DNA from: Bacilli bacterium
GTDB lineage: Bacteria; Bacillota_I; Bacilli_A; RF39; UBA660
Direction of reading: 5' to 3'
Length of the DNA: 49,237 nucleotides
Assembly: GCA_017461465.1 (NCBI GenBank)
Contig: JAFTYN010000152.1
Location: 1 to 49,237, forward strand
Shown: positions 1 to 25,666 of the stretch, one piece after another
Layout of the letters: each line of letters opens with the position of its first letter
Position numbering within the stretch: the stretch's first letter is position 1
Translations under genes and position numbers: made by a program
Notes under the pieces: model-generated
The model's input: only the letters and a program-made list of their open reading frames with translations
What the model was told of the DNA's origin: nothing
The model's database searches: none

Positions 1-83
1 GCCCCAAATACTAAAAGTGATATTATTGAAAATAATGTTATTACTGCTATTAACTCTATTAATGTAAATCCTTTTTTATTCAT
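1..83 (-). CDS. prepilin-type N-terminal cleavage/methylation domain protein (5' end only; gene runs off the left edge)
   Basis: The reverse complement of 1..83 starts at ATG (83..81) and reads MNKKGFTLIELIAVITLFSIISLLVFG. This is a short basic leader ending in Gly, then FTLIE with Glu at +5 and a hydrophobic helix, i.e. a class III (type IV pilin) signal. It is truncated, so it is absent from the ORF track. Confidence 0.6.
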   Translation of the reverse strand, partial: MNKKGFTLIELIAVITLFSIISLLVFG

Positions 84-8620: not shown

Positions 8621-10804
8621 TTGTAATTCTACTAATACTTCTCTTGGTTTTGAGCCATTTTGAGGTCCTACAATACCTCTTTCTTCTAATTTATCAACTA
8701 AATTTGCAGCTCTATTATAACCTATTCTAAATCTTCTTTGAATAAGTGAAGTACTTGCTTTTTTACTAGTAACGACAAATTCAACTACTTGATCATATAA
8801 AGGATCTTCACCTGGATCATAGTCATGACCTTCATTATCTACCATAGTAGTAGCATTCATTTCTTCAGGATCCATAGTTAATGTTTCATCATATCTAGCC
8901 TTCTGCTGTTTTATAGTATAATTTACTACATTTTTAATTTCATCATCAGATACAAAAGTACCTTGAATACGTATTGGTGTATTTTCTCCTTGTGGAAGGA
9001 ATAACATATCACCTTTACCTAGAAGTTTTTCTGCTCCAACTGAATCTAAAATAGTTCTAGAATCGATACCACTAGATACCGCAAAAGCTATTCTAGATGG
9101 AATATTAGCTTTAACTACACCAGTAATTACATCTGTAGATGGTCTTTGTGTTGCTACAATTAAATGGATACCTGCAGCACGTGCCATTTGTGTAATTCTC
9201 ATAATAGAATCTTGAACTTCTTTAGCAGCTACTAACATTAAATCTGCAAGTTCATCAATAATAATTACTATAAAAGGTAATTTATTTAATTTTTCACCTT
9301 CTGGTAATTTCTCATTTTGTTTATCTATATAAGTATTATATCCTGCTATATTCTTAGTTTTACTATTTTCAAATAAATCATATCTTCTTTCCATTTCAGT
9401 AACCATTTTTTTAAGAGCTATATTAGCTTTTCTAGGATCAGTTACTACTGGAGCAAGTAAATGAGGAACTCCGTTATACATAGAAAGTTCTACTTTCTTA
9501 GGATCTACTAATACTAATTTTACTTCATCAGGTCTAGTTCGCATTAAGATAGAAACTATAATACTATTAATACATACTGATTTACCACTACCAGTTGAAC
9601 CAGCTACTAAAAGGTGTGGAGTTTTATTAATTTCACAGTACTGAGGATTTCCCATGATATCTCTACCTAATGTAACAGCAAGTTTACTTTCTTTCATACT
9701 ACTTGGAATACGTTCTAAAACTTCTCTTACACTAACCATAGTATTTTTCTTGTTAGGTAATTCAATACCAACTGTACTCTTACCTGGAATTGGTGCTTGA
9801 ATACGAACTTCTTTTGCTGCTAAAGCTAAAGCAAGTTCTCTATTTATAGCAAGAATTCTATTTAATTTAGTACCTGTTTTAACCTCAAGTTCATACTGCG
9901 TTACAGAAGGTCCAACATGAGCAGCTACTACTTTACTTTCAATTTCAAATTCTTTAAGAACATTTTCTATTAATGGCGCTGTTGTTTTTACAGCATCATT
10001 ATTTTCATTACTATTAGATTTAGCAGGTTTATTTAAAAGTGTTATTGGAGGATAATAATAAACTTTGCTTATTTCCTCTTCTTCTTTTACTTCACCTGTT
10101 TCAGGATCAACTACTATTTCTTTTTCTTCTTTCTTTTCGCCATATTTAGTTAGTTCTTCCATGCTTGTGATAACTACTTTATCATCTGCTTCATAATCAT
10201 CTTCTGCTTTAGTAATAGCAATTCTATCACTTTCTTTAACTTTACCTTTAATTTTTATTTTAGCTTTAATACCTGTAACAATATCTTTTATAGATAATCC
10301 AGTAAATAGAATTATACCCGCAACTACTAAAATCCAGCTTATTACAGTAGCACCTTCTTTTGCAAATAAAGCTATTGATATAGCACAAAAGATAGCACCT
10401 AATATACCACCACCATTTAAATTAATAGTATCTGGTGATTCAAAATATGCACATAAATTATCAAATGTTTTTGTAATCATTTCAAAACCTTTAAATTCAG
10501 CATAATCTAAATGACTTAATACTAATACTGCTAAAATAAGTATATATAAACCTATTAATTTAGAAGTAAAAAACTTTGGCTTTTCTCCCTTTACAACCAT
10601 ATATATACCAATTATAGCTACTAATATATAAAATATAGCATACCACTGTCCAACTAAAAAAGCTCCAATTCCTTTAACAAAGTCTCCAACTGGACCAAAT
10701 TTAGCAAGTCCAATTAAAGCAACTAATATAACTATAAATCCCTTTAATTCATAACTTACAGGACTAGTCTCTTTTTCAGCTTTTCTTTTCTTTTTCTTTG
10801 CCAT
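8609..10804 (-). CDS. ftsK: DNA translocase FtsK/SpoIIIE
   Basis: N-terminal polytopic membrane domain and an acidic linker. Walker A GSTGSGKSV and Walker B IIIDELADL. C-terminal winged-helix gamma domain (SLIQRRFRIGYNRAANLVDKLEERGIVGP). Confidence 0.9.
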   Translation of the reverse strand: MAKKKKRKAEKETSPVSYELKGFIVILVALIGLAKFGPVGDFVKGIGAFLVGQWYAIFYILVAIIGIYMVVKGEKPKFFTSKLIGLYILILAVLVLSHLDYAEFKGFEMITKTFDNLCAYFESPDTINLNGGGILGAIFCAISIALFAKEGATVISWILVVAGIILFTGLSIKDIVTGIKAKIKIKGKVKESDRIAITKAEDDYEADDKVVITSMEELTKYGEKKEEKEIVVDPETGEVKEEEEISKVYYYPPITLLNKPAKSNSNENNDAVKTTAPLIENVLKEFEIESKVVAAHVGPSVTQYELEVKTGTKLNRILAINRELALALAAKEVRIQAPIPGKSTVGIELPNKKNTMVSVREVLERIPSSMKESKLAVTLGRDIMGNPQYCEINKTPHLLVAGSTGSGKSVCINSIIVSILMRTRPDEVKLVLVDPKKVELSMYNGVPHLLAPVVTDPRKANIALKKMVTEMERRYDLFENSKTKNIAGYNTYIDKQNEKLPEGEKLNKLPFIVIIIDELADLMLVAAKEVQDSIMRITQMARAAGIHLIVATQRPSTDVITGVVKANIPSRIAFAVSSGIDSRTILDSVGAEKLLGKGDMLFLPQGENTPIRIQGTFVSDDEIKNVVNYTIKQQKARYDETLTMDPEEMNATTMVDNEGHDYDPGEDPLYDQVVEFVVTSKKASTSLIQRRFRIGYNRAANLVDKLEERGIVGPQNGSKPREVLVELQKED

Positions 10805-10827
10805 ACTTCTTCCCTACTTTCACAATT

Positions 10828-10838
10828 TAATTATATCA
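10828..10838 (-). promoter_or_regulatory. extended -10 promoter element (TGATATAATTA) upstream of ftsK
   Basis: Minus strand reads CATGATATAATTAAATTGTGAAAGTAGGGAAGAAGTATG. Confidence 0.4.
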
Positions 10839-10852
10839 TGATTACTTTATTT

Positions 10853-10880
10853 ATAAAAGAAAAAATGCTAAAAAGCATTT
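10853..10880 (-). terminator. rho-independent terminator after pilin gene 10880..11281
   Basis: Minus strand reads AATGCT-TTTT-AGCATT followed by TTTTTCTTTT, directly after the stop. Confidence 0.5.
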
Positions 10881-11281
10881 TAATTCGAGCATATAGTATT
10901 GCAATCTTCTTTAAATTCAATTGGACTTCTAGATATATCAAAATTAGTAGTTAACTCTTCTTCATTAATTTCTTCTACACTTCTTACTCCATCACTAAGT
11001 TCATATAAAACAATATCTTCACCAATTAATTTCCAGTAGCCAGTAAATTTAGTACCTTTAATTTCTAAATTATCAATACAACCACATGAACGATTATATT
11101 CTATAACTTCTATCGTTCTAATATTTTTTACTAATGTTTTAACATTATCCCTAAATAAATTATCTTTAGCTTCATTAGTTATACGAGTATAAATTGGCAT
11201 TACAATACTACCAATTATCCCAAGAACAATTACAGCTGCTAGAAGTTCCATAAGTGTAAAACCTTTATTTTTTCTATTCAT
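10880..11281 (-). CDS. prepilin-type (type IV pilin/pseudopilin-like) protein
   Basis: MNRKNKG|FTLMELLAAVIVLGIIGSIV is a class III signal with Glu+5. Small 133-aa protein with 4 Cys in the globular part (CGC...C..IC). Confidence 0.75.
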   Translation of the reverse strand: MNRKNKGFTLMELLAAVIVLGIIGSIVMPIYTRITNEAKDNLFRDNVKTLVKNIRTIEVIEYNRSCGCIDNLEIKGTKFTGYWKLIGEDIVLYELSDGVRSVEEINEEELTTNFDISRSPIEFKEDCNTICSN

Positions 11282-11354
11282 ATCAATTCCTACTCTCTAC
11301 ATATATTATAAAATAGCATTTATAATTAGTCAAACAAAAAGTAAGAATGAATTC

Positions 11355-12227
11355 TTACTTTACTCTTCCTACTAATTTAATAATTTTACCATGTTCATCA
11401 AGTGGTCTATTATCATATCTCACTTGTTCTTTTAAGCACCATCTAGAATATTCATAACGGCTTTCTTTGAAATCATGGGCATATCCTTTTCTAAAACATT
11501 TATGATATCTTTTCCAATCATCAACTTTACCATCAGTATATTCATGTTTAACATAACCAAGTTTACCTAAACGTCCCCAAACTTCATCCTTAGCGCTTTC
11601 TTCTGCAAGTAACATAGCAAGATTAATATCATCTTTATATTTTTTCTTATAAAATTCTAAATATTTAGCATATAAAGTTCTAAATGGATTAAGAACATCC
11701 TTTTCATAATTTTCATAATCAACATAATACACTAATTCATTCATGTAATAAATATCATCACTTAATACTATCTTTTCTATTTTAGTTACTGGTACTCTTA
11801 ATTTTTTAAGTTTATATTTTAATAATTCAGAAGTACTTTTTTCCTTACCAGATATAGCACTTTCTTCACCTGGAAGTGTTATAAGTTCATATTTATTTCT
11901 AATAGCTATAGAATCCGCTATTGAAGTATAATACCCACCATTTTCTATACCGTTTATAGAAGGATTAGGAATATATGTATCTATTTTTCTTCCTGGTCTA
12001 GCTATATATTTTTTAGCTAAATTTGTATATTTTTCATATGGTGAGTTTTTAGTAACTATCATTGAAATAATATTAGCACTTCTATTATGCGAATCTTTTA
12101 TTCCATTTAATAAAGTACTATCATATAAATGCAAACTTTTTGGCACAAATAATGAAATATGTTTTAAATCATCTGCCATACTATCATATTGTTTTAATAT
12201 ATCATTTTTTATTTCTACAGGTAACAT
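11355..12227 (-). CDS. hypothetical cytoplasmic protein (290 aa)
   Basis: Long ORF with RBS AAGGGGGA and a canonical promoter upstream. No TM segment and no motif I can recognise. Confidence 0.5.
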   Translation of the reverse strand: MLPVEIKNDILKQYDSMADDLKHISLFVPKSLHLYDSTLLNGIKDSHNRSANIISMIVTKNSPYEKYTNLAKKYIARPGRKIDTYIPNPSINGIENGGYYTSIADSIAIRNKYELITLPGEESAISGKEKSTSELLKYKLKKLRVPVTKIEKIVLSDDIYYMNELVYYVDYENYEKDVLNPFRTLYAKYLEFYKKKYKDDINLAMLLAEESAKDEVWGRLGKLGYVKHEYTDGKVDDWKRYHKCFRKGYAHDFKESRYEYSRWCLKEQVRYDNRPLDEHGKIIKLVGRVK

Positions 12228-12250
12228 AATAATCCCCCTTACCTGCAGAT

Positions 12251-12278
12251 ATTATACTTTTTTTTATTTATTTGTCAA
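12251..12278 (-). promoter_or_regulatory. sigma-A type promoter for 11355..12227
   Basis: Minus strand reads TTGACA-16 nt-TATAAT (TTGACAAATAAATAAAAAAAAGTATAAT). Confidence 0.55.
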
Positions 12279-12294
12279 TCTAAAAGAGATATGA

Positions 12295-12951
12295 TTATTC
12301 ATATCTCTTTGCTTTTACTTGTTTTTTTTCTGGAAGTTTATCATCATATTTTTGTCTTAATGTATATAATTCAGTTAAATTTTGATATGTCTCATAATCT
12401 ACAACACCATAAGCATCTACTATTGTAGCTAAATCCTTACTAATCTTTTTAACTTCATGATGCACTAAAGAACCCATAGGTGCATATAATAAACTTCTTT
12501 TCTTCTGAGCATATTTTTCTATATATTCTCCTAAAGCATTATTTAGTTTTTGCTGTCTTCTTAAAGCTTCCTTCCAAACTTCCATATTACCTTCATTGTT
12601 ACTTAAATGTTTTTTTAATAATCTGTCATTAAAATTTAAAACATCACCAATTAGTATTTTTCTTGGTCCAAAAGTAGCTTTTTGATAAATTCTTTCTACC
12701 GTATAATTATCATATTCACTACCTTTTTGTCTTGAAAATAATCCAATATAATCGTCACCATAATCAGAAGTTGATTCCCAAACTCCTATTTCTAGTTCCT
12801 GTGTTCTATTTTTTTCTTTAGACTCATATTCAGCTTTATAAATATGCGACCCACCTTCATGCTCTAGAAATAATGCTATAGCATCACTAATACTACCACC
12901 AAAATATTCTTCAACTAACGAAATTATTTTTTCCTCTTTATTCTGTCTCAT
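12295..12951 (-). CDS. hypothetical cytoplasmic protein (218 aa)
   Basis: Long ORF with no TM segment and no recognisable motif. An 11-bp perfect hairpin (12284..12309) overlaps its stop. Confidence 0.5.
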   Translation of the reverse strand: MRQNKEEKIISLVEEYFGGSISDAIALFLEHEGGSHIYKAEYESKEKNRTQELEIGVWESTSDYGDDYIGLFSRQKGSEYDNYTVERIYQKATFGPRKILIGDVLNFNDRLLKKHLSNNEGNMEVWKEALRRQQKLNNALGEYIEKYAQKKRSLLYAPMGSLVHHEVKKISKDLATIVDAYGVVDYETYQNLTELYTLRQKYDDKLPEKKQVKAKRYE

Positions 12952-13027
12952 AATACCTTTCCTCCCTCGAAATTGAAAATTATTCTAACATATTTCTAGT
13001 TTTTGTCAAATTACCAAAAAAAAACTG

Positions 13028-14359
13028 TTAATTTAGTTTATTAACAGTTTCTTTAAATTCATTACCTCTATCTTCAAAACATTTATATTGATCCCAAGAA
13101 GCACATCCTGGTGAAAGAAGAATAACATCTCCTTCACTTGAGTTTTCATAAGATGTATTTGTCGCATCTATCAAATTATCTTTTATAATGCATTTTATAT
13201 TTAATGATTTACACCACTCACTAATTCTTTCTTTAGTTTCACCATAGCATACTACTAATTTAACATTAGTCATATATTCATTTAAATTATCAAAACTATG
13301 TCCTCTATCAAGACCACCCATAATTAATATAGTAGGCCTTTTAAAAGAATTTACTGCAATAACAGTAGAATCTGTATTAGTAGATTTACTATCGTTATAA
13401 AAATCTCTCTTATTTAAAGTTCTGACGTATTCAATACGATGTTCTACTCCACCAAAAGTAGTTAAAACTTCATTTATAACATCATTAGATACACCTAAAT
13501 TCTTACATACTACAATAGCGCACATAGCATTTTCATAATTATGTTTGCCTTGAAGCATAATGTCATTTATATTAATAATTTTTTCATTATTATAAACAAT
13601 ATAATCATCTTTTATATAAATATCACTTTCTACTTCACTTGAGAAAGTTATTTTCTTGCTAGGTATATCATTTACTAATTTAAGTACATCTTCATTACCA
13701 TTATTTATAATGGCAAGTTCTTTATCTGTATGCCCATTAAAGATTTTCTTCTTAGTATTTTTATAATTATCATAACTATTTTCATGAAAATCTAAATGAT
13801 TTTGATATAAATTAGTAAGAACACTTATATCAGTTTTAAAATCATACATATCTACAAGCTGATGATCTGATATTTCAAGAACTAAAATATCATTTTCTTT
13901 AACTCTTTCTACTAAAGATGATACTGGATAACCAATATTGCCACCCAAATGAACAGGTAATCCTGCTTTTTCTAATATATTATATATTAATGTTGTCGTA
14001 GTAGTCTTACCATTAGAACCAGTAATACCAACAATTCTAACATTAGGTAAAAAAGTTCCGGCTACCTCTACTTCGTTTATAACTTTCATGCCAAGTTCTT
14101 TAGCCTTAACAACACACTTATGTGATTTTATAATTCCAGGATTTTTTACTAAAACATCATAAGAATCATCTAAAAGTTCATCAGGTTTATCAGTAACTAT
14201 ATAAGTTACTCCTAATTCTTTTAGAACTTTAACATCTTCCTCATTTTGTTCTTTCATATCTGTAATTGTTATTTCATTATTATGTTTTGCTAAAAGCTTA
14301 GCTACTTCAAAGCCACTTCTAGCCATTCCTAAAATAAATATTTTTTTATTTTCGTACAT
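13028..14359 (-). CDS. murD: UDP-N-acetylmuramoyl-L-alanine--D-glutamate ligase
   Basis: N-terminal Rossmann segment ILGMARSG, Mur ligase P-loop GITGSNGKTTTT, NLYQNHLD and a C-terminal LLSPGCASWDQY-like motif. 443 aa. Confidence 0.9.
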   Translation of the reverse strand: MYENKKIFILGMARSGFEVAKLLAKHNNEITITDMKEQNEEDVKVLKELGVTYIVTDKPDELLDDSYDVLVKNPGIIKSHKCVVKAKELGMKVINEVEVAGTFLPNVRIVGITGSNGKTTTTTLIYNILEKAGLPVHLGGNIGYPVSSLVERVKENDILVLEISDHQLVDMYDFKTDISVLTNLYQNHLDFHENSYDNYKNTKKKIFNGHTDKELAIINNGNEDVLKLVNDIPSKKITFSSEVESDIYIKDDYIVYNNEKIININDIMLQGKHNYENAMCAIVVCKNLGVSNDVINEVLTTFGGVEHRIEYVRTLNKRDFYNDSKSTNTDSTVIAVNSFKRPTILIMGGLDRGHSFDNLNEYMTNVKLVVCYGETKERISEWCKSLNIKCIIKDNLIDATNTSYENSSEGDVILLSPGCASWDQYKCFEDRGNEFKETVNKLN

Positions 14360-14411: not shown

Positions 14412-15023
14412 TTAATCTAAGTCTAAAATATTAATGTTATAAACTCCTGATTTAGAAAATATTTCATAACTATTTTCTTCATCTATTTTTTCACCATTAT
14501 ATTCTTTATTATTTACAGTAACTATTTCTTCTTTATCATTAGTCTTAATATAAAAATCTTTATCATTAGATAAATAATTATTAATTACATTACCATCTTC
14601 ATCTACAAAATAAACACTTGGTTCATGATCAACATTAATATTTAAAGTATATTCAGTGAAGTATTTTTTAAAAGTCACAACATAATTTCCTTCTTTTAAA
14701 GAAAAATTCTTTTTAACCTTTTCACCATCTACTTTAACTTCAAAACCTTTTGATTCACAATTTATACTAACATCTTCATTAAAGAATAATCCCTCATTAT
14801 TAAAGAAATTTATCTCTTTACCATTAAACTTTAAATTTAAATCATAGTTAGCAGTATTTACAATTATAGCTAGTAGTAATGGAACAAACGCTAAAACTAG
14901 AATAACTAATGCTACTATTTTTCCTTCTTTAGTAAGTTCTACCTTTTTTACTGTTTTATTAGTTTTACTTACTTCACTTTTTTTAGATACTTTATTCTTA
15001 TTTTTAATTTCTTCTTTTTTCAT
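14412..15023 (-). CDS. bitopic membrane protein, last gene of the pilin operon (function unknown)
   Basis: Lys-rich N-tail, a single TM helix (IVALVILVLAFVPLLLAIIV) and a beta-rich ectodomain. It starts 10 nt after the stop of the giant pilin. Confidence 0.55.
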   Translation of the reverse strand: MKKEEIKNKNKVSKKSEVSKTNKTVKKVELTKEGKIVALVILVLAFVPLLLAIIVNTANYDLNLKFNGKEINFFNNEGLFFNEDVSINCESKGFEVKVDGEKVKKNFSLKEGNYVVTFKKYFTEYTLNINVDHEPSVYFVDEDGNVINNYLSNDKDFYIKTNDKEEIVTVNNKEYNGEKIDEENSYEIFSKSGVYNINILDLD

Positions 15024-15033
15024 ATATTTCTCC

Positions 15034-18000
15034 TTATCTAGTTAAGGTTATTGATGCAGCGTTTCCTGTTGGGAATGTTCCTGCAGCATATGTATTCCCA
15101 TCACTGCCTGTAAATGCATAAGATGTAATGTTTGACATAGAGACAGTTGAAGGTATATTTTTAGGAGTTTTAATTGTTTTTAGATTCGTTGTACCATTAA
15201 ACATAGATGACATATAATCTAAATTAGAACTTAATGACCATGAACTTAAATCTAGTGATGTTAAACTAGTAATTCCATAGAACATAGATGAAAGAGTTGT
15301 CACCTTTTCTACGTTCCATCCTGATACATTTATATTAGATATTTTCGAATTATAAAACATATAGGACATACTTGTTACATTCGCTGTATTAAAATGTCTT
15401 AAATCTAATGAAGCTACATTTGTAGTATCAAACATAGATGACATACTTGTAACTTTACCCGTATTCCATCCTGACACATTTATTGTTGTGGCTTTTGCGG
15501 TTTCAAACATAGCTGACATACTTGTTACATTCGCTGTATTAAAATGACTTAAATCTAATGTTGCTACATTCGTGCCGTAAAACATATACGACATGTTTGT
15601 AACTTTCCCTGTGTTCCATCCTGATGTATTTATTGCGGTAGCTTTAGAACCATAAAACATATATGACATATTAGTTACATTTGATACATCGAGAGATGAT
15701 AAATTTAATGTCGTAGCAGCAGTAGCGCGAAACATATATGACATATTTGTTACTTTTGAGGTATTCCATCCTGAAACATTTATTGTTGTGGCTTTTGAAC
15801 TATAAAACATCGAATTCATACTTGTAACATTTGCTGTATTGAAATGACTTAAATCTAATGTTGCTACATTCGTGCCGTAAAACATAGACGACATACTTGT
15901 AACTTTTCCTGTGTTCCATCCTGATGTATTTATTGCGGTAGCTTTAGAATTATAGAACATACATGACATATTAGTTACATTTGATGTATTAAAATGAGAC
16001 AAATCTAGTGTTGTCGCAGCAGTATCACTAAACATATATGACATATTTGTTACCTGACTAGTATCCCATCCTGACACATTTATTGTTGGAGCTTTCATGT
16101 TATAAAACATATACGACATATTAGTCACATTTGAAGTATTCCATGTCGATAAATCTAAACTTTCTACTGCTTCTAAATATTCAAACATACCACTCATATT
16201 AGTAACCCTATGTGTATTAAAATGACTTAGATTTAAGTTTAGTAAAACATTATTACCATCATCCATATAATATCTATCAGCACGTCTCATTGAAAACATA
16301 TAGCTCATATCAGTTACATTTGATGTATCCCATCCGTTTAAATTTATTGATGACAAATTATAATTATAATGAAACATCGAAGACATATCTTTAACTTTTT
16401 CAGTATCAAAGGAACTCAAATCAAGTGATTCAATATAACATAGTCCCTCAAACATATGACTCATATCTTCTACATTAGCTGTATCCCATCCTGAAAAATC
16501 AATTTCAGCGATATCTGAACAATAATATGTTTGTGATGGGCGAAAAACAAGATTTTCAATACTATTATTCTTATTTAATCCATCTAAAATACTAGGTGTT
16601 AATTTTTTTGTATCACTCTTTAAATAGTCATCATATGCATATGATGAATCATGTCCAGCAAACATATATGACATATCTACAACATTTGAAGTATCAAAAG
16701 AACTAAGATCTAACGTTCCTAATGAGCACATTCCTTCAAACATATGGCTCATATTTTGAACACTAGATGTATCCCAATTAGTTAAATCTAAATTTGTTAT
16801 ATTAGAGCAATTAAATACTGAAGCATCGTCTCCTATAACAACCAACTGTTCAATATTGTTTTTATCATTAAAATTATTTAAATAATTTATTTTAAAATCA
16901 TCCAATATATTAGCACTAATAGGATCTACATCTTCTTCATCATAACCAGCAAACATATATGACATATTTACAACATCTGAAGTATCATAATTTTCAAAAT
17001 TTACTGTATATAAGTTATCTAAACGATAAAACCAGTATGAAGAATCTATATTGGCTTTTATTGTACCATTACTTCCAATATACATATTGTAATATCCTGC
17101 ATTAGATGCACTTTCTATAATCCAACCTTTTATAGAATTATCTTTGGCTTCTGATAAATCCCAAGTTGCTACTGCATTTGCAGGAATATCAACATTATCT
17201 ATAAAGGAAATAGAAGTAATATTAGGTGCATATGAAGAACTTCTAAAACCACCCGATAAAAGTCCTGCTGAATAAGTTTCTAAATAAGAATATTTAGAAA
17301 CTAAAGTAATTTTTCTGTTTTTAGAAACTGAATTGCCACTTTTATCAGTTGCTATATAAGTAATGATATATTCACCTGGTCTATTATAATTAATAGTACC
17401 ACTAGTCTTAATTGTAGGAGCTACCCCACTATTATCTGTAGCAGTAACTCCTTCCATTAGATTTAAAGTTTCTCCTATTCCTATTTCTAAATCTTCAGGA
17501 ACATTTAGTTCTGGTGCTGTTGTATCTACTACATATACTTTTCTTGTTAATGTTTTTGATATACCATTTTCAATAATTGTATATTTAGCATGATAATCTT
17601 TTCCTAATACTTTTAAATTAACATTGTTTGATTTTACTATACTAGAACTCATATCTTCACCAGCTGAACTTTTTGCAGTTGCACCTGGATCAAATGAAGC
17701 ATAAGTTAAAGTACTATCATTTGTTATTTCTATTTTTTGAGGATTATCTCCTAACAAGTATATTGATGGTGTTTTAGATACTGCTTCACAATCTTTTAAA
17801 TTACCATCTATAAGCTCTTCATCTAAAAAAGTATATTCATATGTATCTTTTTCATTATCTTTTACTCTTGTTATTTTAAACTGCATTGTATTTGCTAAAC
17901 AAGTACTTGTTTTAGGATTTTTTATTTCATATTCGATATAACCTTGCTCTTTTAAATCTGCTAAAGTTACTATTATTTCTTCGCCATCTTCATATATTAG

Positions 18001-18186
18001 TTCTTTATTATCTGTAACCCAGTTTCTTAATCCATCTTTTAATGTATCTTTTGTTCTATTATAAGCATTATTCTTTGTTTTAGTTATAATATAGTCTACT
18101 GATGGAATTGCTATTAATGCTATTAAACCTATTAATATTACTACTCCTATTAACTCTACAAGTGTAAAACCTTTTCTACTTTTCAT
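15034..18186 (-). CDS. modular giant pilin: prepilin N-terminus + pilin module + two Ig-like (DUF5011-type) domains + ~20 DUF285/BspA-type leucine-rich repeats
   Basis: MKSRKG|FTLVELIGVVILIGLIALI. Residues 1 to about 133 align with the 134-aa pilin encoded upstream, including both Cys. Next come LLGDNP...DPGATAKSSAGEDMS and TTAPEL...VTATDNSG...GEYIITYIATDKSGN (Ig-like). About 20 repeats of the form (D/N)TxxV(T/V)xMSxMF follow. Confidence 0.8.
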   Translation of the reverse strand: MKSRKGFTLVELIGVVILIGLIALIAIPSVDYIITKTKNNAYNRTKDTLKDGLRNWVTDNKELIYEDGEEIIVTLADLKEQGYIEYEIKNPKTSTCLANTMQFKITRVKDNEKDTYEYTFLDEELIDGNLKDCEAVSKTPSIYLLGDNPQKIEITNDSTLTYASFDPGATAKSSAGEDMSSSIVKSNNVNLKVLGKDYHAKYTIIENGISKTLTRKVYVVDTTAPELNVPEDLEIGIGETLNLMEGVTATDNSGVAPTIKTSGTINYNRPGEYIITYIATDKSGNSVSKNRKITLVSKYSYLETYSAGLLSGGFRSSSYAPNITSISFIDNVDIPANAVATWDLSEAKDNSIKGWIIESASNAGYYNMYIGSNGTIKANIDSSYWFYRLDNLYTVNFENYDTSDVVNMSYMFAGYDEEDVDPISANILDDFKINYLNNFNDKNNIEQLVVIGDDASVFNCSNITNLDLTNWDTSSVQNMSHMFEGMCSLGTLDLSSFDTSNVVDMSYMFAGHDSSYAYDDYLKSDTKKLTPSILDGLNKNNSIENLVFRPSQTYYCSDIAEIDFSGWDTANVEDMSHMFEGLCYIESLDLSSFDTEKVKDMSSMFHYNYNLSSINLNGWDTSNVTDMSYMFSMRRADRYYMDDGNNVLLNLNLSHFNTHRVTNMSGMFEYLEAVESLDLSTWNTSNVTNMSYMFYNMKAPTINVSGWDTSQVTNMSYMFSDTAATTLDLSHFNTSNVTNMSCMFYNSKATAINTSGWNTGKVTSMSSMFYGTNVATLDLSHFNTANVTSMNSMFYSSKATTINVSGWNTSKVTNMSYMFRATAATTLNLSSLDVSNVTNMSYMFYGSKATAINTSGWNTGKVTNMSYMFYGTNVATLDLSHFNTANVTSMSAMFETAKATTINVSGWNTGKVTSMSSMFDTTNVASLDLRHFNTANVTSMSYMFYNSKISNINVSGWNVEKVTTLSSMFYGITSLTSLDLSSWSLSSNLDYMSSMFNGTTNLKTIKTPKNIPSTVSMSNITSYAFTGSDGNTYAAGTFPTGNAASITLTR
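15190..17010 (-). repeat. coding tandem-repeat array (DUF285/BspA LRR units, ~69-75 nt) with a near-identical 300-bp higher-order repeat at 15481..15780 / 15781..16080
   Basis: Lines 15481-15780 and 15781-16080 align at an offset of exactly 300 nt. One shared run of 43 identical nt is ATGACTTAAATCTAATGTTGCTACATTCGTGCCGTAAAACATA. Confidence 0.85.
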
Positions 18187-18580
18187 ATTCTACCTCACAA
18201 CTTTCTGTAAATCTTATATTATTTTCATCTTGAAATTTATAAGTATAATTATTATTTTTTCTAGTAATAACTATTACTGTATCATTAGAAATGCACATTT
18301 CATTAATTGGATTAATAACATCTACTTCTATAAATCCACCTAGTTTTAAATCTCCTAAAGTTATATATACATAATCGCCATCTACGGTAGGAAGCTCCAT
18401 CATATTAGATGCTCCATAATCTTTAGCAGCACTTAATATTACCTCTTTTTGATTTTCATAACCTTTTTCTCTAGTTGACTTAATAACTGCATCTATAGTT
18501 GGTATTGTTATGAGCGCTAAAACACCAATTAGTGTTATGACTGCTAAAATTTCTACTAAAGTAAATCCTCTATTTCTCAT
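18176..18580 (-). CDS. prepilin-type (type IV pilin-like) protein, first gene of pilin operon
   Basis: MRNRG|FTLVEILAVITLIGVLALITIP with two Cys (EMCISN...ESCE) typical of a pilin D-region. It overlaps the next gene by 11 nt. Confidence 0.8.
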   Translation of the reverse strand: MRNRGFTLVEILAVITLIGVLALITIPTIDAVIKSTREKGYENQKEVILSAAKDYGASNMMELPTVDGDYVYITLGDLKLGGFIEVDVINPINEMCISNDTVIVITRKNNNYTYKFQDENNIRFTESCEVEYEK

Positions 18581-19886: not shown

Positions 19887-21140
19887 CTAAAAGTTAAGCA
19901 TTATCCATTCTGGTTTAAATATTAATAGTAAGCCTATAATAATCATTATTATACCGCCAACTAAATGTGCAAATTTACTATATTTTGTAGTAACACCACT
20001 TATCTTTAAAGTTAACATTGCTATTATAAATATAGCTAAATCATCTATCAAGAAAAATAATATATATATTAAAATATATCCTATTTTCATTAATCCATCT
20101 ATATTATTTAATTCTAGTATTGTAATAAAGATAGTTGGAAAGCCAGCTGAGCAAGCAAGTTCTACTAAGTTAACACTAGCTGCTAAAGCTATTATACCAA
20201 TTAGAGCTATAAGTAGGTTTTGCTCTGCTGTCAAAGCTTTTATTTTTGTAAAATACTTCTTTCTTTTCTTTTCATCAACCACATGGCATCCATCTTCTTT
20301 GGCTGTTAAATAACTTCTTAAGTTAAGAACGCCTCCTATAATGGCAACTAAAGCAATTATTCTTCTTACCCATGTTATAGCTGCAAAACTAAGTACTACT
20401 GATAATCCTAACATTGCTAAGAAATAAACAAATGCTGATGTTACTAAGAATGTTGTTCCTAAAAGCCACATTTTCTTTCTATTTTTCATATTAAATAACA
20501 TATTAATTAGAAATAATAAAATCCAAAGTGCACATGGGTTAAAACCATCTATAAATCCTAATATAATAGCAATTAATGGTATTGATGCTTCTTTAGCATC
20601 TATTTTTCCCAATAAAGGAATATCATATTCTGTATTTTCTTTTTTCTTTGTTTCTTCTTTTTCTTCTAACTTAGGTTCTTCATCTATTTCTTCTTTTGGT
20701 TCTTCTAAAGCTGGTGTTTCTACTTCAGTATTATCATTATAATAACTATCTAAAGTTGCTTTCATTCTTGAACCAATAGAAGCCATGTATCCATTAAAAA
20801 ATTCATCACCTATAACAGTAAAAGGCACTCCAGTAGAAGTAGAGCCCATTCTATCTTTGGCAATTTTCATATAATCATAATTAGTACCAGAAGATACTTC
20901 GTAACTTCTAATAACTAAGTTCGGATAATCTTTTTTGATACTTTCTAAAAACTTTTTTTCTGCTTTACAGTGAGAACAAGTATCACTATGAAAAAAATAT
21001 ATAGTTACAGTTTCACTTTTCTTTTCTCCAACAATATCATAGATTTTATCTTCAAACTGCTTAGCATTTACTAATTGAGGAAATATTAAAAATGATATTA
21101 CTAATAAAAATGTTAATAAATATTTCTTTAATTTATTCAT
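19887..21140 (-). CDS. secreted thioredoxin/glutaredoxin-fold domain (CSHC) fused to a CcdA/DsbD-like polytopic membrane domain
   Basis: Signal peptide ending in VNA. The Trx-like fold shows FFHSDTCSHCKAEKKF and a cis-Pro GVPFTVIG. A Glu/Lys linker leads to about 6 TM helices with membrane-embedded Cys in GFNPCALWILLF and ELACSAGFP. Confidence 0.55.
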   Translation of the reverse strand: MNKLKKYLLTFLLVISFLIFPQLVNAKQFEDKIYDIVGEKKSETVTIYFFHSDTCSHCKAEKKFLESIKKDYPNLVIRSYEVSSGTNYDYMKIAKDRMGSTSTGVPFTVIGDEFFNGYMASIGSRMKATLDSYYNDNTEVETPALEEPKEEIDEEPKLEEKEETKKKENTEYDIPLLGKIDAKEASIPLIAIILGFIDGFNPCALWILLFLINMLFNMKNRKKMWLLGTTFLVTSAFVYFLAMLGLSVVLSFAAITWVRRIIALVAIIGGVLNLRSYLTAKEDGCHVVDEKKRKKYFTKIKALTAEQNLLIALIGIIALAASVNLVELACSAGFPTIFITILELNNIDGLMKIGYILIYILFFLIDDLAIFIIAMLTLKISGVTTKYSKFAHLVGGIIMIIIGLLLIFKPEWIMLNF

Positions 21141-21393
21141 ACTTTTTTATAACACTTTCTATATCTTCAAATTTCTTTTCCCCTATTAATCTTTCTAGTT
21201 CAGTATCATCTTTATAAAATATAGTAACTGGAAGTATATCTCCAATATTATATTTTTTTACTTCTTCTTCATCCATATCTAAGTCTAAACTTTTTACTTC
21301 TATATTAGGATACTCTTTATTAATTTTATCCCATACTTTATGCATCACAATACATCCAGGGCACCACATAGCCCCTATTTTTATTACTTTCAT
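21133..21393 (-). CDS. small cytoplasmic thioredoxin
   Basis: 86 aa with the WCPGC active site and no signal peptide. It overlaps the downstream gene by 8 nt. Confidence 0.8.
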   Translation of the reverse strand: MKVIKIGAMWCPGCIVMHKVWDKINKEYPNIEVKSLDLDMDEEEVKKYNIGDILPVTIFYKDDTELERLIGEKKFEDIESVIKKYE

Positions 21394-23204: not shown

Positions 23205-23603
23205 TTAGTATATACCACATGTTCCGGTTGATGAACCAGATATTTCAAATAATGAAAGTACAAAGTTAAGTAATGATGGTACTAGGAATAATAGACCTAT
23301 TGCTATTAATCTAGTAACAAATCTTTTATTAGCTTTAGCCATACTATCATCATTAGAACCAAATATAGCTTTTACATAATCTGCTATTTGAAGAATTACC
23401 GCTAAAGCAATACCTGCTATTCTAATATAATCTAAAATAGTTTGTAATAGTTCTTTTAATTCTCCACCATCTACAATTTCGCATCCTTCTTTAGCAACTA
23501 ATTCTACTTTTGTTTCAATTTCTACTGCTAAAGCAGGCTCTACCAAAATAAATATTAATAATCCAATAAATAAAATATTATACCATTTAAAAAACTTCTT
23601 CAT
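23205..23603 (-). CDS. secreted protein consisting of signal peptide + Cys-flanked two-helix membrane hairpin, C-terminus GTCGIY (unknown family; VirB2/TrbC-like topology)
   Basis: Preferred start MKKFFKW at 23603 (TAATG overlap with the upstream stop). Signal peptide ends ...EPALA. The segment EGCEIV...ELLQTILDYIRIAGIALAVILQIADYVKAIFGSNDDSMAKANKRFVTRLIAIGLLFLVPSLLNFVLSLF...GTCGIY is roughly 80% identical at DNA level (by eye) to the 3' end of 24073..25179. Confidence 0.6.
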   Translation of the reverse strand: MKKFFKWYNILFIGLLIFILVEPALAVEIETKVELVAKEGCEIVDGGELKELLQTILDYIRIAGIALAVILQIADYVKAIFGSNDDSMAKANKRFVTRLIAIGLLFLVPSLLNFVLSLFEISGSSTGTCGIY

Positions 23604-23995
23604 TAAAAACCACACTCTAAATTTACTTTCATTTCATAATCATCCTCTGTATAAGGATTTTGTGGATATATTATAACATAAGTTTCGTTATAATTACATT
23701 GTTTTTTAGTTTGATTATTAACAAATTCTTTTGGATCTTCATAATAAATAGCGGAAATAAGTTCTGATAAACCAACTTTCATTCCGTCCTCTGTATAACT
23801 ACCTAACTCATCTACATTATTAACAGTAGGTAAATATACTTTTTGATAATATGTTGCACCTAATACACCAAGTTTATTTTTTAATCTTTCCTCTTGATTA
23901 TCATGCTCAATACTTTTTCTAGCTATACCAAGAACCATAGTTGCTGCAAGCATTATAGCAAATATAATTATAGGTTTCTTAAAATCAGTCTGCAT
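23603..23995 (-). CDS. bitopic membrane protein ending in ECGF, paralogue of 25182..25601 (function unknown)
   Basis: Preferred start MQTDFKK at 23995 (AGGAGG lies 8 nt upstream; the ORF-track start at 24013 is TTG). One TM helix, then a domain with two conserved Cys (KKQCNY...LECGF). Confidence 0.6.
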   Translation of the reverse strand: MQTDFKKPIIIFAIMLAATMVLGIARKSIEHDNQEERLKNKLGVLGATYYQKVYLPTVNNVDELGSYTEDGMKVGLSELISAIYYEDPKEFVNNQTKKQCNYNETYVIIYPQNPYTEDDYEMKVNLECGF

Positions 23996-24045
23996 ATATA
24001 ATTCCTCCTGCAATATAAGTATAATATATTTTTAAAAGAAAAGCA

Positions 24046-24074
24046 AAGAAAAAACCAAAGTTAAACTTTGGTTT
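24046..24074 (-). terminator. rho-independent terminator after 24073..25179, overlapping its stop
   Basis: Minus strand reads AAACCAAAG-TTTAA-CTTTGGTTT followed by TTTTCTTT. Confidence 0.6.
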
Positions 24075-25179
24075 AAAAAATTCCACATGTTCCAGCTTCG
24101 GCAGCATCTAAGATATTAAATAATGAAAGTACAAAGTTTAATATTGAAGGTATTAAAAATAATATTCCTATTGCTATTAATCTAGTTGAAAAACGTTTAT
24201 TTGCTTTAGCCATTCCATCATCTGATGAACCAAATATCGCCTTTATATAGTCCGCTATTTGAAGAATTACAGCAAGGGATATACCAGCTATTCTAATATA
24301 ATCTAAAATAGTTTGCAATAATTCAGTAAGTTCTGAAGATAATAAAGCACACCCCTCTTTAGCTTCCATATCTACATCAACACTTATATTAACGCCATCT
24401 GATTTAGTACCCCCACCACTTTTTTTATCTTCTTCTGTTTGTGGTTTATTTTGTTCTTCTAAAGTTTCTGCATCTGGCGTTTCAGAACCAACTACTGTTG
24501 TACTCATTCCACCTTGAGAAGTTTTAGAAATACCACATGTAGGTGTTCCACCTCTTTCAGTACAATTCAAATGAAGCGAAGGACAACTTAATTTACCATT
24601 TGAACCTACAAAGTCACTTGCTTTAATTTCACTACTACCTACTTGATATTTACTAGTTAATTCTGATTCTAGTGTTTTACCATCAGTATGGAAGGTCACC
24701 TTTCCACCATAACTACAGCTTATTCTTTCTGTTTTTGGTTCATCTTCTTTAACTTCAGTTAATGGTTTATTATTGTTCGTTGAATCACTAGTCAAAGCTA
24801 TTTTTGATGCTCCTGACTGACTAGTAAATGTTAAAGAATATGTTGCTGATCTACCACTCGAAGATGTTATTTTTTGATATAAAGTGCTAGGACAAGATAG
24901 TTTATTTGTTGACTTATTAATAAAGTTAGCTGATGTTATATTGTCCATATTATTTGTTACTGAACCACCTGCTATATTTTGAGTTGGGACACATGACTTT
25001 TTTAAATCAGCTGTACCTGTTCCAGTTGCTTCTAGAGAAAAAGTGCATTTAAAAAGCCCAACATTATAAACACACGTAGCACATGAATATTTATTGCAGT
25101 CACCTGCATTAGCTACATCAATATTAACAAAAAATGCTAAAAATAATAAAAATAATAAAAACTTAAAATTCCTTTTCAT
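24073..25179 (-). CDS. secreted Cys-rich protein with C-terminal Cys-flanked two-helix membrane hairpin, C-terminus GTCGIF
   Basis: Preferred start MKRNFKF at 25179. Signal peptide ends ...VANA. The roughly 270-aa Cys/Ser/Thr-rich ectodomain carries an internal duplication (ITSANFINKSTNKLSCPS / IKASDFVGSNGKLSCPS). An acidic linker is followed by the same hairpin module as 23205..23603. Confidence 0.6.
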   Translation of the reverse strand: MKRNFKFLLFLLFLAFFVNIDVANAGDCNKYSCATCVYNVGLFKCTFSLEATGTGTADLKKSCVPTQNIAGGSVTNNMDNITSANFINKSTNKLSCPSTLYQKITSSSGRSATYSLTFTSQSGASKIALTSDSTNNNKPLTEVKEDEPKTERISCSYGGKVTFHTDGKTLESELTSKYQVGSSEIKASDFVGSNGKLSCPSLHLNCTERGGTPTCGISKTSQGGMSTTVVGSETPDAETLEEQNKPQTEEDKKSGGGTKSDGVNISVDVDMEAKEGCALLSSELTELLQTILDYIRIAGISLAVILQIADYIKAIFGSSDDGMAKANKRFSTRLIAIGILFLIPSILNFVLSLFNILDAAEAGTCGIF

Positions 25180-25181
25180 AA

Positions 25182-25601
25182 CTAAAACCCACATTCTAAT
25201 TGATATTCTATTTCATAATCCTTTTTTTGGTATGGTTCCTTTGGATAAATAACTACATAACTTTTATCATAATCACATTTTTCATTTACTTTTTCATTAA
25301 TAAAAAATTCAGGATCTTCATTATATACATTTAGAATTAAAGTTCCTAAATCAACTTTTATTCCAATATCCTTTAATATATCTAGATATTCTTCTTTTTC
25401 TCCATCGATTGAGTCATAATAAATTTCTTCATAATACACAACTCCTAAACTCTCTAGTCGATAATTTAGTTCATCTTCTTTATTTCCTTTACCTAAAAGA
25501 CTAGAACCAATCATTAAGGCAATTGAAATAATAATAAAAACTATTAATAAAATTATTTTTGTTCTGTTTTCTTCTAAAAAATCACTAAAACTATAATCCA
25601 T
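25182..25601 (-). CDS. bitopic membrane protein ending in ECGF, paralogue of 23603..23995
   Basis: Preferred start MDYSFSDF at 25601 (AGGAG lies 8 nt upstream). One TM helix, then GIKVDLGTLILNVYNEDPEFF...NEKCDYDKSYVVIYPKEPY...YQLECGF. Confidence 0.6.
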   Translation of the reverse strand: MDYSFSDFLEENRTKIILLIVFIIISIALMIGSSLLGKGNKEDELNYRLESLGVVYYEEIYYDSIDGEKEEYLDILKDIGIKVDLGTLILNVYNEDPEFFINEKVNEKCDYDKSYVVIYPKEPYQKKDYEIEYQLECGF

Positions 25602-25625
25602 ACTTATTACTCCTATTCTAAAAAC

Positions 25626-25634
25626 ATTATAACA
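25626..25634 (-). promoter_or_regulatory. extended -10 promoter (TGTTATAAT) of the 25601..24073 unit
   Basis: Minus strand reads TTTATGTTATAATGTTTTTAGAATAGGAG, immediately after the upstream terminator. Confidence 0.45.
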
Positions 25635-25635
25635 T

Positions 25636-25666
25636 AAAAAAAAAGATAATAAAATAATTATCATCT
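25636..25666 (-). terminator. rho-independent terminator after metallophosphoesterase gene
   Basis: Minus strand reads AGATGATAA-TTATT-TTATTATCT (one G-U pair) followed by TTTTTTTT. Confidence 0.5.

Follow-up and report, generated by a model that had tools for sequence, protein, structure and literature searches.

A 1050-residue candidate modular type IV pilin with an exchangeable PARCEL/DUF285 module in an uncultured gut member of the Bacilli

Introduction

The genome of a spore-forming gut bacterium with low GC content, an uncultured representative of the class Bacilli, encodes a 1050-aa protein that we interpret, with a probability of roughly 0.6, as a tripartite modular type IV pilin displayed on a filament and bearing an adhesin-like outer part. 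The modular-pilin reading, in the sense used for Streptococcus sanguinis PilB and PilC, is well supported, because a complete and confidently modelled pilin module is followed by a bulky non-pilus module and the protein has no other anchor; its display on a filament is what we infer from this. Between strains of one species the part distal to the first Ig-like domain is replaced as a cassette, and the pilin carrier remains constant.

Modular pilins are thought to explain many of the functions gained by simple type IV filaments. To our knowledge few of them have been studied, among them S. sanguinis PilB and PilC, CofB and ComZ. By definition they begin with an IPR012902 motif and a pilin module, to which at least one domain that is not pilus-specific is added, and they are proposed to be tip-exposed; S. 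sanguinis PilB has been shown to be an adhesin (PMC8179133). Prepilin (N_methyl) signals joined to BspA-type leucine-rich repeats (LRRs; IPR026906) are within the 15 commonest architectures, with 27 plain and 2 PilA-type proteins in Dataset S1 (PMC8179133). A sequence-only reading of the gene described here had taken the combination of a pilin with DUF285 repeats (IPR005046; PMC2996958) to be undescribed, yet about 22 IPR012902-IPR005046(n) proteins, 4 of them with an Ig-like Rib spacer, are already present in Dataset S1 of Raynaud et al. 2021 (PMC8179133), where they are counted but never described or analysed. This kind of fusion is thus already catalogued, although never studied, and it is the exchange of cassettes on a carrier that is new here.

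Results

A 1050-aa protein with a pilin module, an Ig-like stalk and a repeat array

Coordinates refer to the window, the whole 49,237-nucleotide stretch of DNA that was analysed. The gene and the segments of its product are as follows.

15034..18186, (-) strand: gene for the 1050-aa modular pilin (open reading frame read)
18169..18186, (-) strand: class III (prepilin) leader MKSRKG, predicted cleavage after Gly6 (sequence; Pfam N_methyl over residues 1-27)
17776..18168, (-) strand: pilin module, aa 7-137, with alpha1 helix and Glu5, four-stranded beta-sheet and Cys96/Cys133 pair (AF2, profile, alignment)
17521..17775, (-) strand: Ig-like domain 1 (PF16403), aa 138-222 (Pfam; AF2 strands 141-220, pLDDT ~87-94)
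17296..17520, (-) strand: Ig-like domain 2 (PF16403), aa 223-297 (best Pfam stretch 226-294; AF2 model)
16987..17295, (-) strand: flexible linker (aa 300-312) and N-terminal solenoid cap (aa ~320-400) (AF2)
15178..16986, (-) strand: PARCEL/DUF285 array of 19-20 repeats, aa 401-1003, period 25-26 residues (regex, Pfam, TIGR02167, TRF, AF2)
15034..15177, (-) strand: conserved C-terminal cap and tail (ending in TGSDGNTYAAGTFPTGNAASITLTR) and stop codon (protein comparison)

The ATG is preceded at 6 nt by a GAGG ribosome-binding site. The same amino-acid sequence is encoded by 5-6 independent metagenome contigs and is present at NCBI (MBQ8872233.1), which excludes an assembly artefact; the NCBI PGAP product name is merely "BspA family leucine-rich repeat surface protein", a generic label. 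In Pfam the domain order is N_methyl, two PF16403 and PF03382, which places the protein within the modular pilins as Raynaud et al. 2021 define them. The mature product has a computed mass of ~116 kDa, and inspection of the sequence found neither an LPXTG motif nor a C-terminal hydrophobic or membrane anchor. The sequence-only description of the protein – signal, pilin module, two Ig domains and about 20 repeats – holds in every detail, with the naming of the repeat family corrected. It had also been called unusually large, and at 1050 aa it does surpass the case that Raynaud et al. 2021 single out as "most extreme" (860 aa; PMC8179133), but related metagenome-assembled genomes (MAGs) encode prepilins of 1027-1582 aa (open reading frames of 1027, 1089, at least 1269 and 1582 aa).

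A class III signal consists of a short basic leader ending in Gly and ~21 hydrophobic residues with Glu at +5. The signal read earlier as MKSRKG/FTLVE has Gly-1, Phe+1 and Glu+5, and the full stretch is MKSRKG followed by FTLVELIGVVILIGLIALIAIP. Both profile scores pass narrowly (PF07963 N_methyl, 21.6 bits against a cutoff of 21.2; NCBIfam TIGR02532, 17.3 against 16.3), and residues G6, F7, T8, L9 and E11 are invariant in a family alignment of 10 sequences. The proposed whole-length match to the 134-aa pilin encoded upstream is borne out by an alignment of residues 1-123 at 39% identity (E = 3e-24). In the 10-sequence alignment (A1) the stand-alone pilins stop exactly where the big protein enters the linker before Ig1, and its two Cys residues (C96 and C133) are both aligned with theirs. 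AF2 models the module as an alpha1 helix (9-59) and strands at 70-74, 95-97, 102-110 and 113-121 (pLDDT 81-94), such that it is predicted to have the pilin fold, a long alpha1 packed on an antiparallel beta-sheet. A profile of the module matched Geobacter PilA, S. sanguinis PilE1, MshA and GspG in the PDB, via alpha1 only, and its matches at E < 0.1 are type IV pilins and pseudopilins only; Foldseek with the globular head returned no pilin.

The two Ig domains claimed for the protein correspond to two stretches of PF16403 (presumably IPR032179; 68.7 bits in Pfam), modelled by AlphaFold as beta-sandwiches at 141-220 and 226-296 (pLDDT 87-96). Foldseek matches include stalk Ig domains of Moritella chitinase, SraP and Rib, and as modelled the two domains resemble adhesin stalk domains. 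The linker has pLDDT < 50 (AF2 N-terminal model) and the cap 87-97 (full-length model); the cap is only ~38% identical to that of allele P0001 in a crude fixed-window alignment.

The earlier count of about 20 repeats of DUF285/BspA type stands as to number and period, a strict regex finding 19 and a loose one 20 at 25-26 residues, but not as to the BspA type. The array matches PF03382 (Pfam, 397.1 bits) and TIGR02167 (NCBIfam, 393.9 bits in 19 stretches), and as tandem 25-26 residue repeats matching these models it belongs to the PARCEL/DUF285 repeat proteins. Strict BspA-type LRR (Pfam LRR_5, PF13306/IPR026906) was considered for the repeats, and the 1050-aa protein has no PF13306 match at E <= 0.01; DUF285 and LRR_5 are both LRR-like and are distinct Pfam families. 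The array is broken twice by an insertion of ~45 aa that has its own pair of Cys residues (460/487 in one, 556/583 in the other). The acidic solenoid is modelled with one short strand per repeat at pLDDT 90-98, against < 50 for the insertions. The regular part of the array (15281-16140) has a DNA periodicity of 150 and 300 nt (TRF). No ligand or solved structure is reported for any DUF285/PARCEL protein (PMC2996958 and a structure and literature look-up); domain type and the pattern of variation are the two grounds on which we infer a putative adhesin function for the module.

The distal part of the protein is exchanged between strains

The window has a same-species counterpart (contig L091) in which the flanks are 95-97% identical. 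Compared in 60-nt windows, the two genes are 93-100% identical as far as nt ~660 (position ~17526 of the window), where nucleotide identity starts to fall, through 87, 80, 68 and 63%; beyond this point it is 42-87%. The carrier, which is conserved, consists of the pilin module and Ig1; all that lies beyond the Ig1/Ig2 boundary behaves as a cassette open to exchange. Ig1, 97.6% identical in the same-species allele, is thus the conserved proximal stalk and Ig2 the first segment of the variable cassette. The L091 allele has 4-5 repeats compared with 20 in the window gene, so that cassettes of 4-20 repeats replace one another within one species; because the DNA repeat units are only 71-78% alike (TRF), the variation is by allelic replacement and not by rapid slippage.

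Among 14 alleles and orthologues (792-1078 aa) the N-terminus is near-identical, and the C-terminal tail is shared by 13; overall the tail is kept in 14 of the 17 proteins compared (the 13 alleles and P0001) and is absent from P0246, P0366 and the truncated P0003. The segment encoding cap and tail has 81% nucleotide identity to the L091 allele. At the same position in a syntenic genome (L006, GCA_003246125.1) the protein, P0006, is an N_methyl, Ig and LRR_5 (PF13306) fusion, and in other members of the family the same pilin-Ig carrier is followed by a Hint, LamG, Big_3_3, Fib_succ or PF12810 module. Judged from these sequences, the 1050-aa protein is one of a family of uncultured gut Bacilli, new here, whose members consist of pilin, Ig stalk and interchangeable effector. 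The variation is as would be expected for a module that is exposed on the surface, serves in binding or as an antigen, and is under diversifying selection.

Neighboring genes and assembly machinery

Four further features of the window bear on the gene.

18176..18580, (-) strand: stand-alone 134-aa type IV pilin (N_methyl 28.4 bits, TIGR02532 30.2 bits)
14412..15023, (-) strand: 203-aa single-pass membrane protein (open reading frame and TM segment read)
10880..11281, (-) strand: further small prepilin, 133 aa (N_methyl 30 bits)
1..83, (-) strand: start of another modular pilin gene, running off the window (prepilin motif MNKKGFTLIELI at window position 83)

The genes for the 134-aa pilin, the 1050-aa protein and the 203-aa membrane protein constitute a conserved three-gene cassette. 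The stop codon of the small pilin gene overlaps the big-gene start by 11 nt, and an AGGTGA ribosome-binding site was likewise read from the sequence. Both syntenic loci, L006 and L091, have kept the small pilin (97.8% identity in the latter). It is paralogous to the pilin module of the big protein and probably its partner minor pilin. The gene for the 203-aa protein begins 10 nt past the big-gene stop; its product has no Pfam or NCBIfam match and is 34% identical (E = 3e-25) to its positional counterpart in syntenic L006. The 133-aa prepilin, which has a 125-aa counterpart at the same position in L006, resembles the big protein in the alpha1 helix only (BLASTP, 36% over 53 aa). The edge gene is complete on the same contig in L008 (15339-16619), and its 426-aa product has N_methyl and a PF12810 glycine-rich domain, giving four prepilin-type genes in ~55 kb of contig (window and L008).

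No prepilin peptidase, platform protein or ATPase was found in the 49-kb window and its ~15 kb extensions. In related uncultured Bacilli, a T2SSF platform gene is paired with an A24 peptidase gene (L066, L088, L092 and L093), after dnaG-sigA-trmK; in L066 the pair is directly upstream of family pilins, and in L093 it is 6 kb from a gene for a 910-aa N_methyl and PF16403 pilin. The platform protein is large, highly conserved and beside the peptidase in every context examined, and carries an N-terminal extension of 250-400 residues. A motif scan and Pfam-annotated contexts revealed no PF00437-type T2SSE ATPase in ~90 loci of the uncultured lineages (~1.2 Mb, ~20 kb per genome), and such an ATPase was seen in three cultured Bacillaceae only.

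Discussion

We propose that the prepilin enters the membrane, that an A24 prepilin peptidase would remove MKSRKG, and that the mature ~116 kDa protein would use alpha1 and the small globular head of its pilin module to join a type IV filament. Its probable place is the filament tip, together with the co-translated paralogous 134-aa pilin, since a 900-residue appendage cannot pack inside the filament body. Ig1 and Ig2 would serve as the stalk, and the acidic ~20-repeat PARCEL solenoid may provide an exposed ligand-binding, adhesin-like surface.

The protein shares with S. sanguinis PilB (vWA) and PilC (lectin) a small N-terminal class III pilin module joined to a bulky non-pilus domain, a monoderm host, a small non-modular pilin encoded alongside, and a proposed tip-exposed role in adhesion. 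It differs in that a solenoid of ~650 residues is attached through two Ig-like stalk domains, rather than a single vWA domain on a short loop as in PilB; in being more than twice the size of PilB (~116 kDa versus 50.5 kDa processed); in having its gene outside a pil operon; and in being known from sequence alone. The IPR012902-IPR005046(n) and IPR012902-PF08428-IPR005046(n) proteins likewise have N_methyl and then 1-9 DUF285 units, but the spacer here is a pair of PF16403 domains rather than Rib, and the combination of IPR032179 with IPR005046 is absent from the 2021 Dataset S1 list (PMC8179133). P0006 is exactly an N_methyl and LRR_5 modular pilin with the same pilin-Ig carrier, whereas the window protein has DUF285. 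Tandem 25-residue amphipathic repeats of the PF03382/TIGR02167 kind, variable copy number, membrane-targeting attachment and strain-variable surface proteins are common to the PARCEL/DUF285 proteins of Mollicutes and other microbes (Roske et al. 2010; PMC2996958), for which the anchors given are lipoprotein, signal-peptide and TM, with pilins unmentioned; in the present protein a type IV pilin module takes that place.

The same N-terminus could instead act as a surface-display device without a filament, the processed protein staying in the membrane or in a short stub and the Ig stalk pushing the PARCEL module through the wall. Archaeal substrate-binding proteins with class III signals offer a parallel. 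The number, dispersal among housekeeping genes and frequently very large size of the prepilin-type genes (four in ~55 kb; 45% of 105 prepilin open reading frames in related MAG loci at least 200 aa), the great diversity of appended modules, the failure to find an assembly ATPase in the contexts sampled from these lineages and the lack of another anchor all agree with it, but the conserved T2SSF platform accompanies the peptidase throughout, and we know of no role for such a platform besides filament assembly. Moreover, the ATPase may lie elsewhere, as sampling covered ~20 kb per genome, and a small paralogous pilin partner fits a filament tip complex, as in S. sanguinis PilA-PilC (PMC9934059). 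We therefore regard anchoring without a filament as doubtful.

An ordinary Sec-dependent protein, with an uncleaved signal anchor resembling a prepilin signal and tethering a DUF285 or "BspA-family" protein to the membrane, would suit the PGAP product name, the borderline N_methyl score, the many kinds of membrane anchor on which PARCEL arrays are known (PMC2996958) and the non-pilin N-termini of 104 of the 120 closest effector relatives. It is made quite improbable by the likeness to the adjacent pilin, which spans the whole 124-residue module and not the helix alone, by the invariant Gly-1, Phe+1 and Glu+5, by the pilin-like helix and sheet of the AF2 model, by the restriction of PDB matches at E < 0.1 to type IV pilins and pseudopilins, and by the fusion of the same carrier to many unrelated modules. 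We give least credence to a minor pilin of a Com-type (competence) pseudopilus, with the large module as an accessory of a DNA-uptake pilus. Among the type IV filaments of Bacilli, Com pili are the most common kind, and the best named sub-threshold NCBIfam matches of both pilins are ComGC, ComGD, ComGE and GspG. However, ComGC scores 21.8 bits for the big protein and 33.7 for the small pilin where the equivalog cutoff is 75, the scores of the remaining ComG models likewise fall far short of their cutoffs, the matches are confined to alpha1, and neither this locus nor the T2SSF-A24 loci have a comGA-GB-GC operon layout. A strain-variable Ig and LRR-like module also fits ligand or host binding more than DNA capture. 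A filament-displayed modular pilin is thus the reading we prefer.

A more general idea, which we consider unlikely as it stands, is that a wide range of uncultured gut Bacilli with reduced genomes may have turned the N-terminus of type IV pilins into an all-purpose platform for surface display. It draws on dozens of dispersed carrier genes (pilin module and PF16403 Ig stalk) with interchangeable cassettes (DUF285, LRR_5, Hint, LamG, TSP1, DUF6273 and glycine-rich domains) and the replacement of these cassettes between strains at a fixed breakpoint, and also on the minimal T2SSF and A24 pair inside the dnaG-sigA-trmK housekeeping operon, with no canonical ATPase nearby. Should these genomes truly be without the ATPase, they would have a type IV filament or display system of a new and minimal kind.

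The 1050-aa protein is among the largest modular pilins, and its carrier, stalk and effector are easily delimited. The PARCEL/DUF285 repeats, a very large family, would gain a defined context of presentation. Because current pipelines label such proteins "BspA family" or "DUF5011" only, pilin-displayed adhesins of uncultured gut Bacilli are missed. Within one species the effector is swapped as a cassette at a defined domain boundary on a constant pilin carrier, a concrete case for the diversification of pilus adhesins in gut commensals.

Genomic context of the modular pilin gene

The modular pilin and its neighbouring prepilins are located as follows, in window coordinates unless another locus is named.

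15034-18186, minus strand: 1050-aa modular pilin
18176-18580, minus strand: 134-aa small pilin, a paralogue of the pilin module
10 nt past the stop codon of the 1050-aa gene: 203-aa single-pass membrane protein, whose counterpart in a syntenic relative is 34% identical (E = 3e-25)
10880-11281, minus strand: third small prepilin, 133 aa
1-83, minus strand: start of a fourth prepilin gene, running past the window edge and complete at 15339-16619 of locus L008 on the same contig

An identical 1050-aa protein is present on five to six independent metagenome contigs – including a 134.6-kb ruminant gut metagenome scaffold (ENA ERZ28654305) – and in NCBI as MBQ8872233.1, and this recurrence shows that the gene is real; the current annotation, "BspA family leucine-rich repeat surface protein", misses its pilin part. 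The window is chromosomal, has a GC content of ~27%, and carries almost every gene on the minus strand. Pfam scans identify housekeeping genes (topoisomerase subunits, FtsK, MurD, CdsA, UppS, RseP, ThrRS and RNase R) and sporulation genes (CotE, GerM-like and SpoIIIAH), and the low GC content together with the sporulation genes indicates that the host is a low-GC spore-forming member of the Bacillota, known from MAGs alone.

The stop codon of the small pilin gene and the start of the 1050-aa gene lie within an 11-nt overlap, and Shine-Dalgarno sequences precede both genes. The fourth prepilin gene, directly downstream of a ParC/GyrA-like gene, codes for a 426-aa modular product with N_methyl and the glycine-rich ALK_LTK domain PF12810. 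A scan for promoters and terminators was uninformative at this GC content (27%); shuffled sequences gave more hits.

Just upstream of the pilin cassette (19887-21393, minus strand) are genes for an 86-aa thioredoxin and a 417-aa protein, both kept in the same-species contig L091 and in L006, the syntenic locus of GCA_003246125.1. Read by eye, the 417-aa protein appears to start with a signal peptide and to combine a thioredoxin-like CxxC region with a membrane domain of several passes; the two proteins might be the makers of the Cys96-Cys133 disulfide of the pilin modules. Between MurD and the 133-aa pilin (11355-12951, minus strand) are 290-aa and 218-aa genes with no family match; these are missing from L006, where the pilin directly follows MurD. 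A cluster of small membrane proteins at 23205-25664 (minus strand) matches PF18895 (T4SS_pilin) at 23205-23615 and 24073-25194 and weakly matches the Mbov_0395 pilin-like conjugal transfer family; its 24054-25636 segment (373-aa and 160-aa ORFs) is missing from L091, a strain-level indel.

Domain organization and predicted structure

The sequence-only reading had proposed a class III signal, a complete pilin module, two Ig-like domains and about 20 repeats, and each of these is borne out. The signal (MKSRKG/FTLVE, with Gly-1, Phe+1 and Glu+5) passes the thresholds narrowly, at 21.6 versus 21.2 bits for Pfam N_methyl and 17.3 versus 16.3 for TIGR02532. Residues 1-123 are 39% identical to the upstream 134-aa pilin (E = 3e-24), and in a 10-sequence alignment the stand-alone pilins stop exactly at the start of the linker to Ig1, with C96 and C133 both aligned. 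Pfam places two PF16403 stretches in the Ig region. A regular expression yields 19-20 repeats with a period of 25-26 residues, and TIGR02167 – the NCBIfam "PARCEL repeat-containing surface protein" model – gives 19 stretches; two ~45-residue insertions, each with a Cys pair, break the array. The assignment of the repeats to the DUF285/BspA type stands in its DUF285/PARCEL part (397 bits for PF03382) but not in the strict BspA sense, there being no match to Pfam LRR_5 (PF13306). The mature protein is computed at 1044 aa, ~116 kDa and pI 4.6, and the 1050-aa protein has neither an LPXTG motif nor a C-terminal anchor.

An AlphaFold model of residues 1-421 (33 homologues, mean pLDDT 81) predicts a pilin "lollipop", with a long helix (9-59) against a four-stranded sheet (70-121), followed by beta-sandwich domains at 141-220 and 226-296 and a disordered linker at 300-312. 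In the full-length model (mean pLDDT 79.5) the cap and repeat array (~320-1010) are predicted at pLDDT 90-98, with one short strand per PARCEL repeat and both insertions scoring low. The pilin-module profile matches Geobacter PilA, S. sanguinis PilE1, MshA and GspG in the PDB, via alpha1 only. In Foldseek searches of both models against the PDB, only the two Ig domains had counterparts, in the stalks of adhesins and glycosidases (Moritella chitinase, SraP, Rib and InlK), and no match came back for the pilin head or the solenoid; with a best E-value of 0.28 for the PARCEL repeats in a phmmer search of the PDB, the solenoid has no likeness there by fold or by sequence.

A conserved carrier with variable distal cassettes

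A search with residues 1-414 recovers a family sharing the pilin module and a PF16403 stalk, with C-terminal modules that differ among members (DUF285, LRR_5, Hint, LamG, Big_3_3, Fib_succ_major and PF12810). Almost all are from MAGs of uncultured gut "Bacilli", "Tenericutes" and "Mycoplasmatota" of ruminants, rabbits, chickens and humans, and a pilin-module profile found 79 loci in the genome collection, the best being 45% identical. In GCA_003246125.1 the gene order is syntenic (Aminotran_5, thioredoxin, SDF transporter, small pilin, modular pilin, TM protein, MurD, pilin, FtsK), with LRR_5 in the modular pilin in place of DUF285.

Variation is also evident within the species. L091 has flanks 95-97% identical to those of the window (flanking proteins 96.5-99.5%), and its allele is 542 aa long with four to five repeats. 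As far as gene position ~660, the Ig1/Ig2 boundary at window position ~17526, the two genes share 93-100% nucleotide identity, apart from 83% over the first 60 nt. Beyond that point identity steps down from 87% to 42%, in 60-nt windows, through Ig2, the cap and the initial repeats, before rising again to 81-87% in the C-terminal tail and past the gene. Prepilin N-termini occur in 16 of the 120 sequences most closely related to the effector region. In 14 of the 16 (792-1078 aa, 8-20 repeats) these N-termini are near-identical, and 13 of these 14 alleles also keep the C-terminal tail. The 542-aa allele P0001 extends the series, in which the repeat number is highest in the window allele. Repeats in the array are only 71-78% alike as DNA, so the variation reflects allelic replacement or recombination, and rapid slipped-strand size variation is rejected.

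Many of the closest DUF285 proteins (P0244, P0251, P0273, P0279, P0304 and others) have an initial hydrophobic stretch that closes with SYAYFS or TYAYFS, which we take to resemble SipW-dependent signal peptides. PARCEL arrays appear to have been joined to several kinds of export or anchoring signal.

Assembly machinery and alternative interpretations

Pfam scans of essentially all window ORFs of at least 100 aa detect no PilB/ComGA, PilC/ComGB or PilD genes, and extensions of ~5 kb and ~10 kb contain one modular pilin besides the 1050-aa protein and no machinery genes. None of the T2SSF proteins retrieved has an accession in the MBQ887 range of the 1050-aa protein. In four divergent uncultured Bacilli the genes for a T2SSF platform and an A24 prepilin peptidase are paired, always directly after dnaG-sigA-trmK.

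L066, 5807-8650: T2SSF and A24 unit
L088, L092 and L093, each at ~10001-13200: T2SSF and A24 unit

The platform proteins (650-810 aa) have an unusual, partly hydrophobic N-terminal extension of 250-400 residues. In L066 the pair is immediately followed by pilins of the family, and in L093 a 126-aa pilin follows the peptidase, with a 910-aa N_methyl and PF16403 pilin 6 kb away; a single genome can therefore hold both modular pilins of this family and genes for prepilin processing. None of the four loci has a PF00437 ATPase within 10 kb of the unit, and no T2SSE ATPase turned up across ~1.2 Mb of loci from these lineages, a survey that reached only ~20 kb of each genome and so is no proof of absence. 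The motif scans detected such ATPases in three cultured Bacillaceae only.

We favour, with a probability of about 0.6, the interpretation that the 1050-aa protein is a modular minor pilin, in which the conserved pilin module and Ig1 would act as carrier and proximal stalk, and Ig2, the cap and the PARCEL solenoid would form a distal cassette presenting an exposed, strain-variable binding surface. S. sanguinis PilB and the PilA-PilC pair suggest, by analogy, that the protein and its co-translated small paralogue would probably be presented jointly at the tip of a filament. The earlier proposal of a pilus-displayed LRR adhesin is mostly right, with processing, polymerisation, tip location and a ligand as features that we infer.

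Of the alternatives, pilin-type membrane anchoring with no filament assembly is the least improbable, though still unlikely. That the protein is a plain signal-anchored surface protein is quite improbable: although the class III signal scores only narrowly above threshold, the alignment with the adjacent small pilin spans the whole pilin module. An accessory role in a Com pilus is the least probable, the pilins scoring far below the NCBIfam cutoffs for ComG proteins, and we rejected their membership of that system.

Modular and large prepilins in related lineages

Modular pilins were defined by Raynaud et al. 2021 (PMC8179133), who catalogued 1,219 proteins in 264 architectures, and the modular-pilin concept is not new. 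Their Dataset S1 includes IPR012902-IPR005046(n), n = 1-9, in ~22 proteins (four with a Rib Ig-like spacer), and IPR012902-IPR026906(n) in 27 proteins and two more with IPR001082 between. As IPR005046 is DUF285 (IPR026906 being the BspA-type LRR), the pilin-DUF285 fusion, which the sequence-only reading considered undescribed, had already been catalogued, though never discussed, and that claim of novelty was overstated. The combination of two PF16403 domains with DUF285 is absent from Dataset S1. Our literature search found nothing that deals specifically with type IV pili of this uncultured group of Bacilli; the paper on TANB77 pilins describes a cluster from a different order that is not related to this one, with a predicted assembly ATPase of the CpaF family.

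The large size also noted earlier holds relative to the 860-aa "most extreme case" of PMC8179133, but related MAGs reach similar or greater lengths.

L043, 9980-14725: prepilin-type ORF, 1582 aa
L069, 6867-10673: prepilin-type ORF, at least 1269 aa
L081, 9992-13258: prepilin-type ORF, 1089 aa
L048, 9974-13054: prepilin-type ORF, 1027 aa

Past N_methyl these giants have almost no Pfam match, and represent large uncharacterised pilin-borne modules. Solitary modular pilins also occur amid housekeeping genes on related ruminant-gut contigs (L007, 10001-12160 and 405-803; L004, 10001-10921 and 18319-19326), one example being a 719-aa N_methyl, Ig and Hint protein. Of 105 prepilin ORFs sampled, 45% are at least 200 aa, a figure biased upward by selection with a probe from the protein's own family, and the lineage appears to be rich in modular or large pilins. 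The 1050-aa protein adds a new member of unusual size to the established class of modular type IV pilins, and the pattern of cassette swapping on its carrier is clear and previously undescribed.
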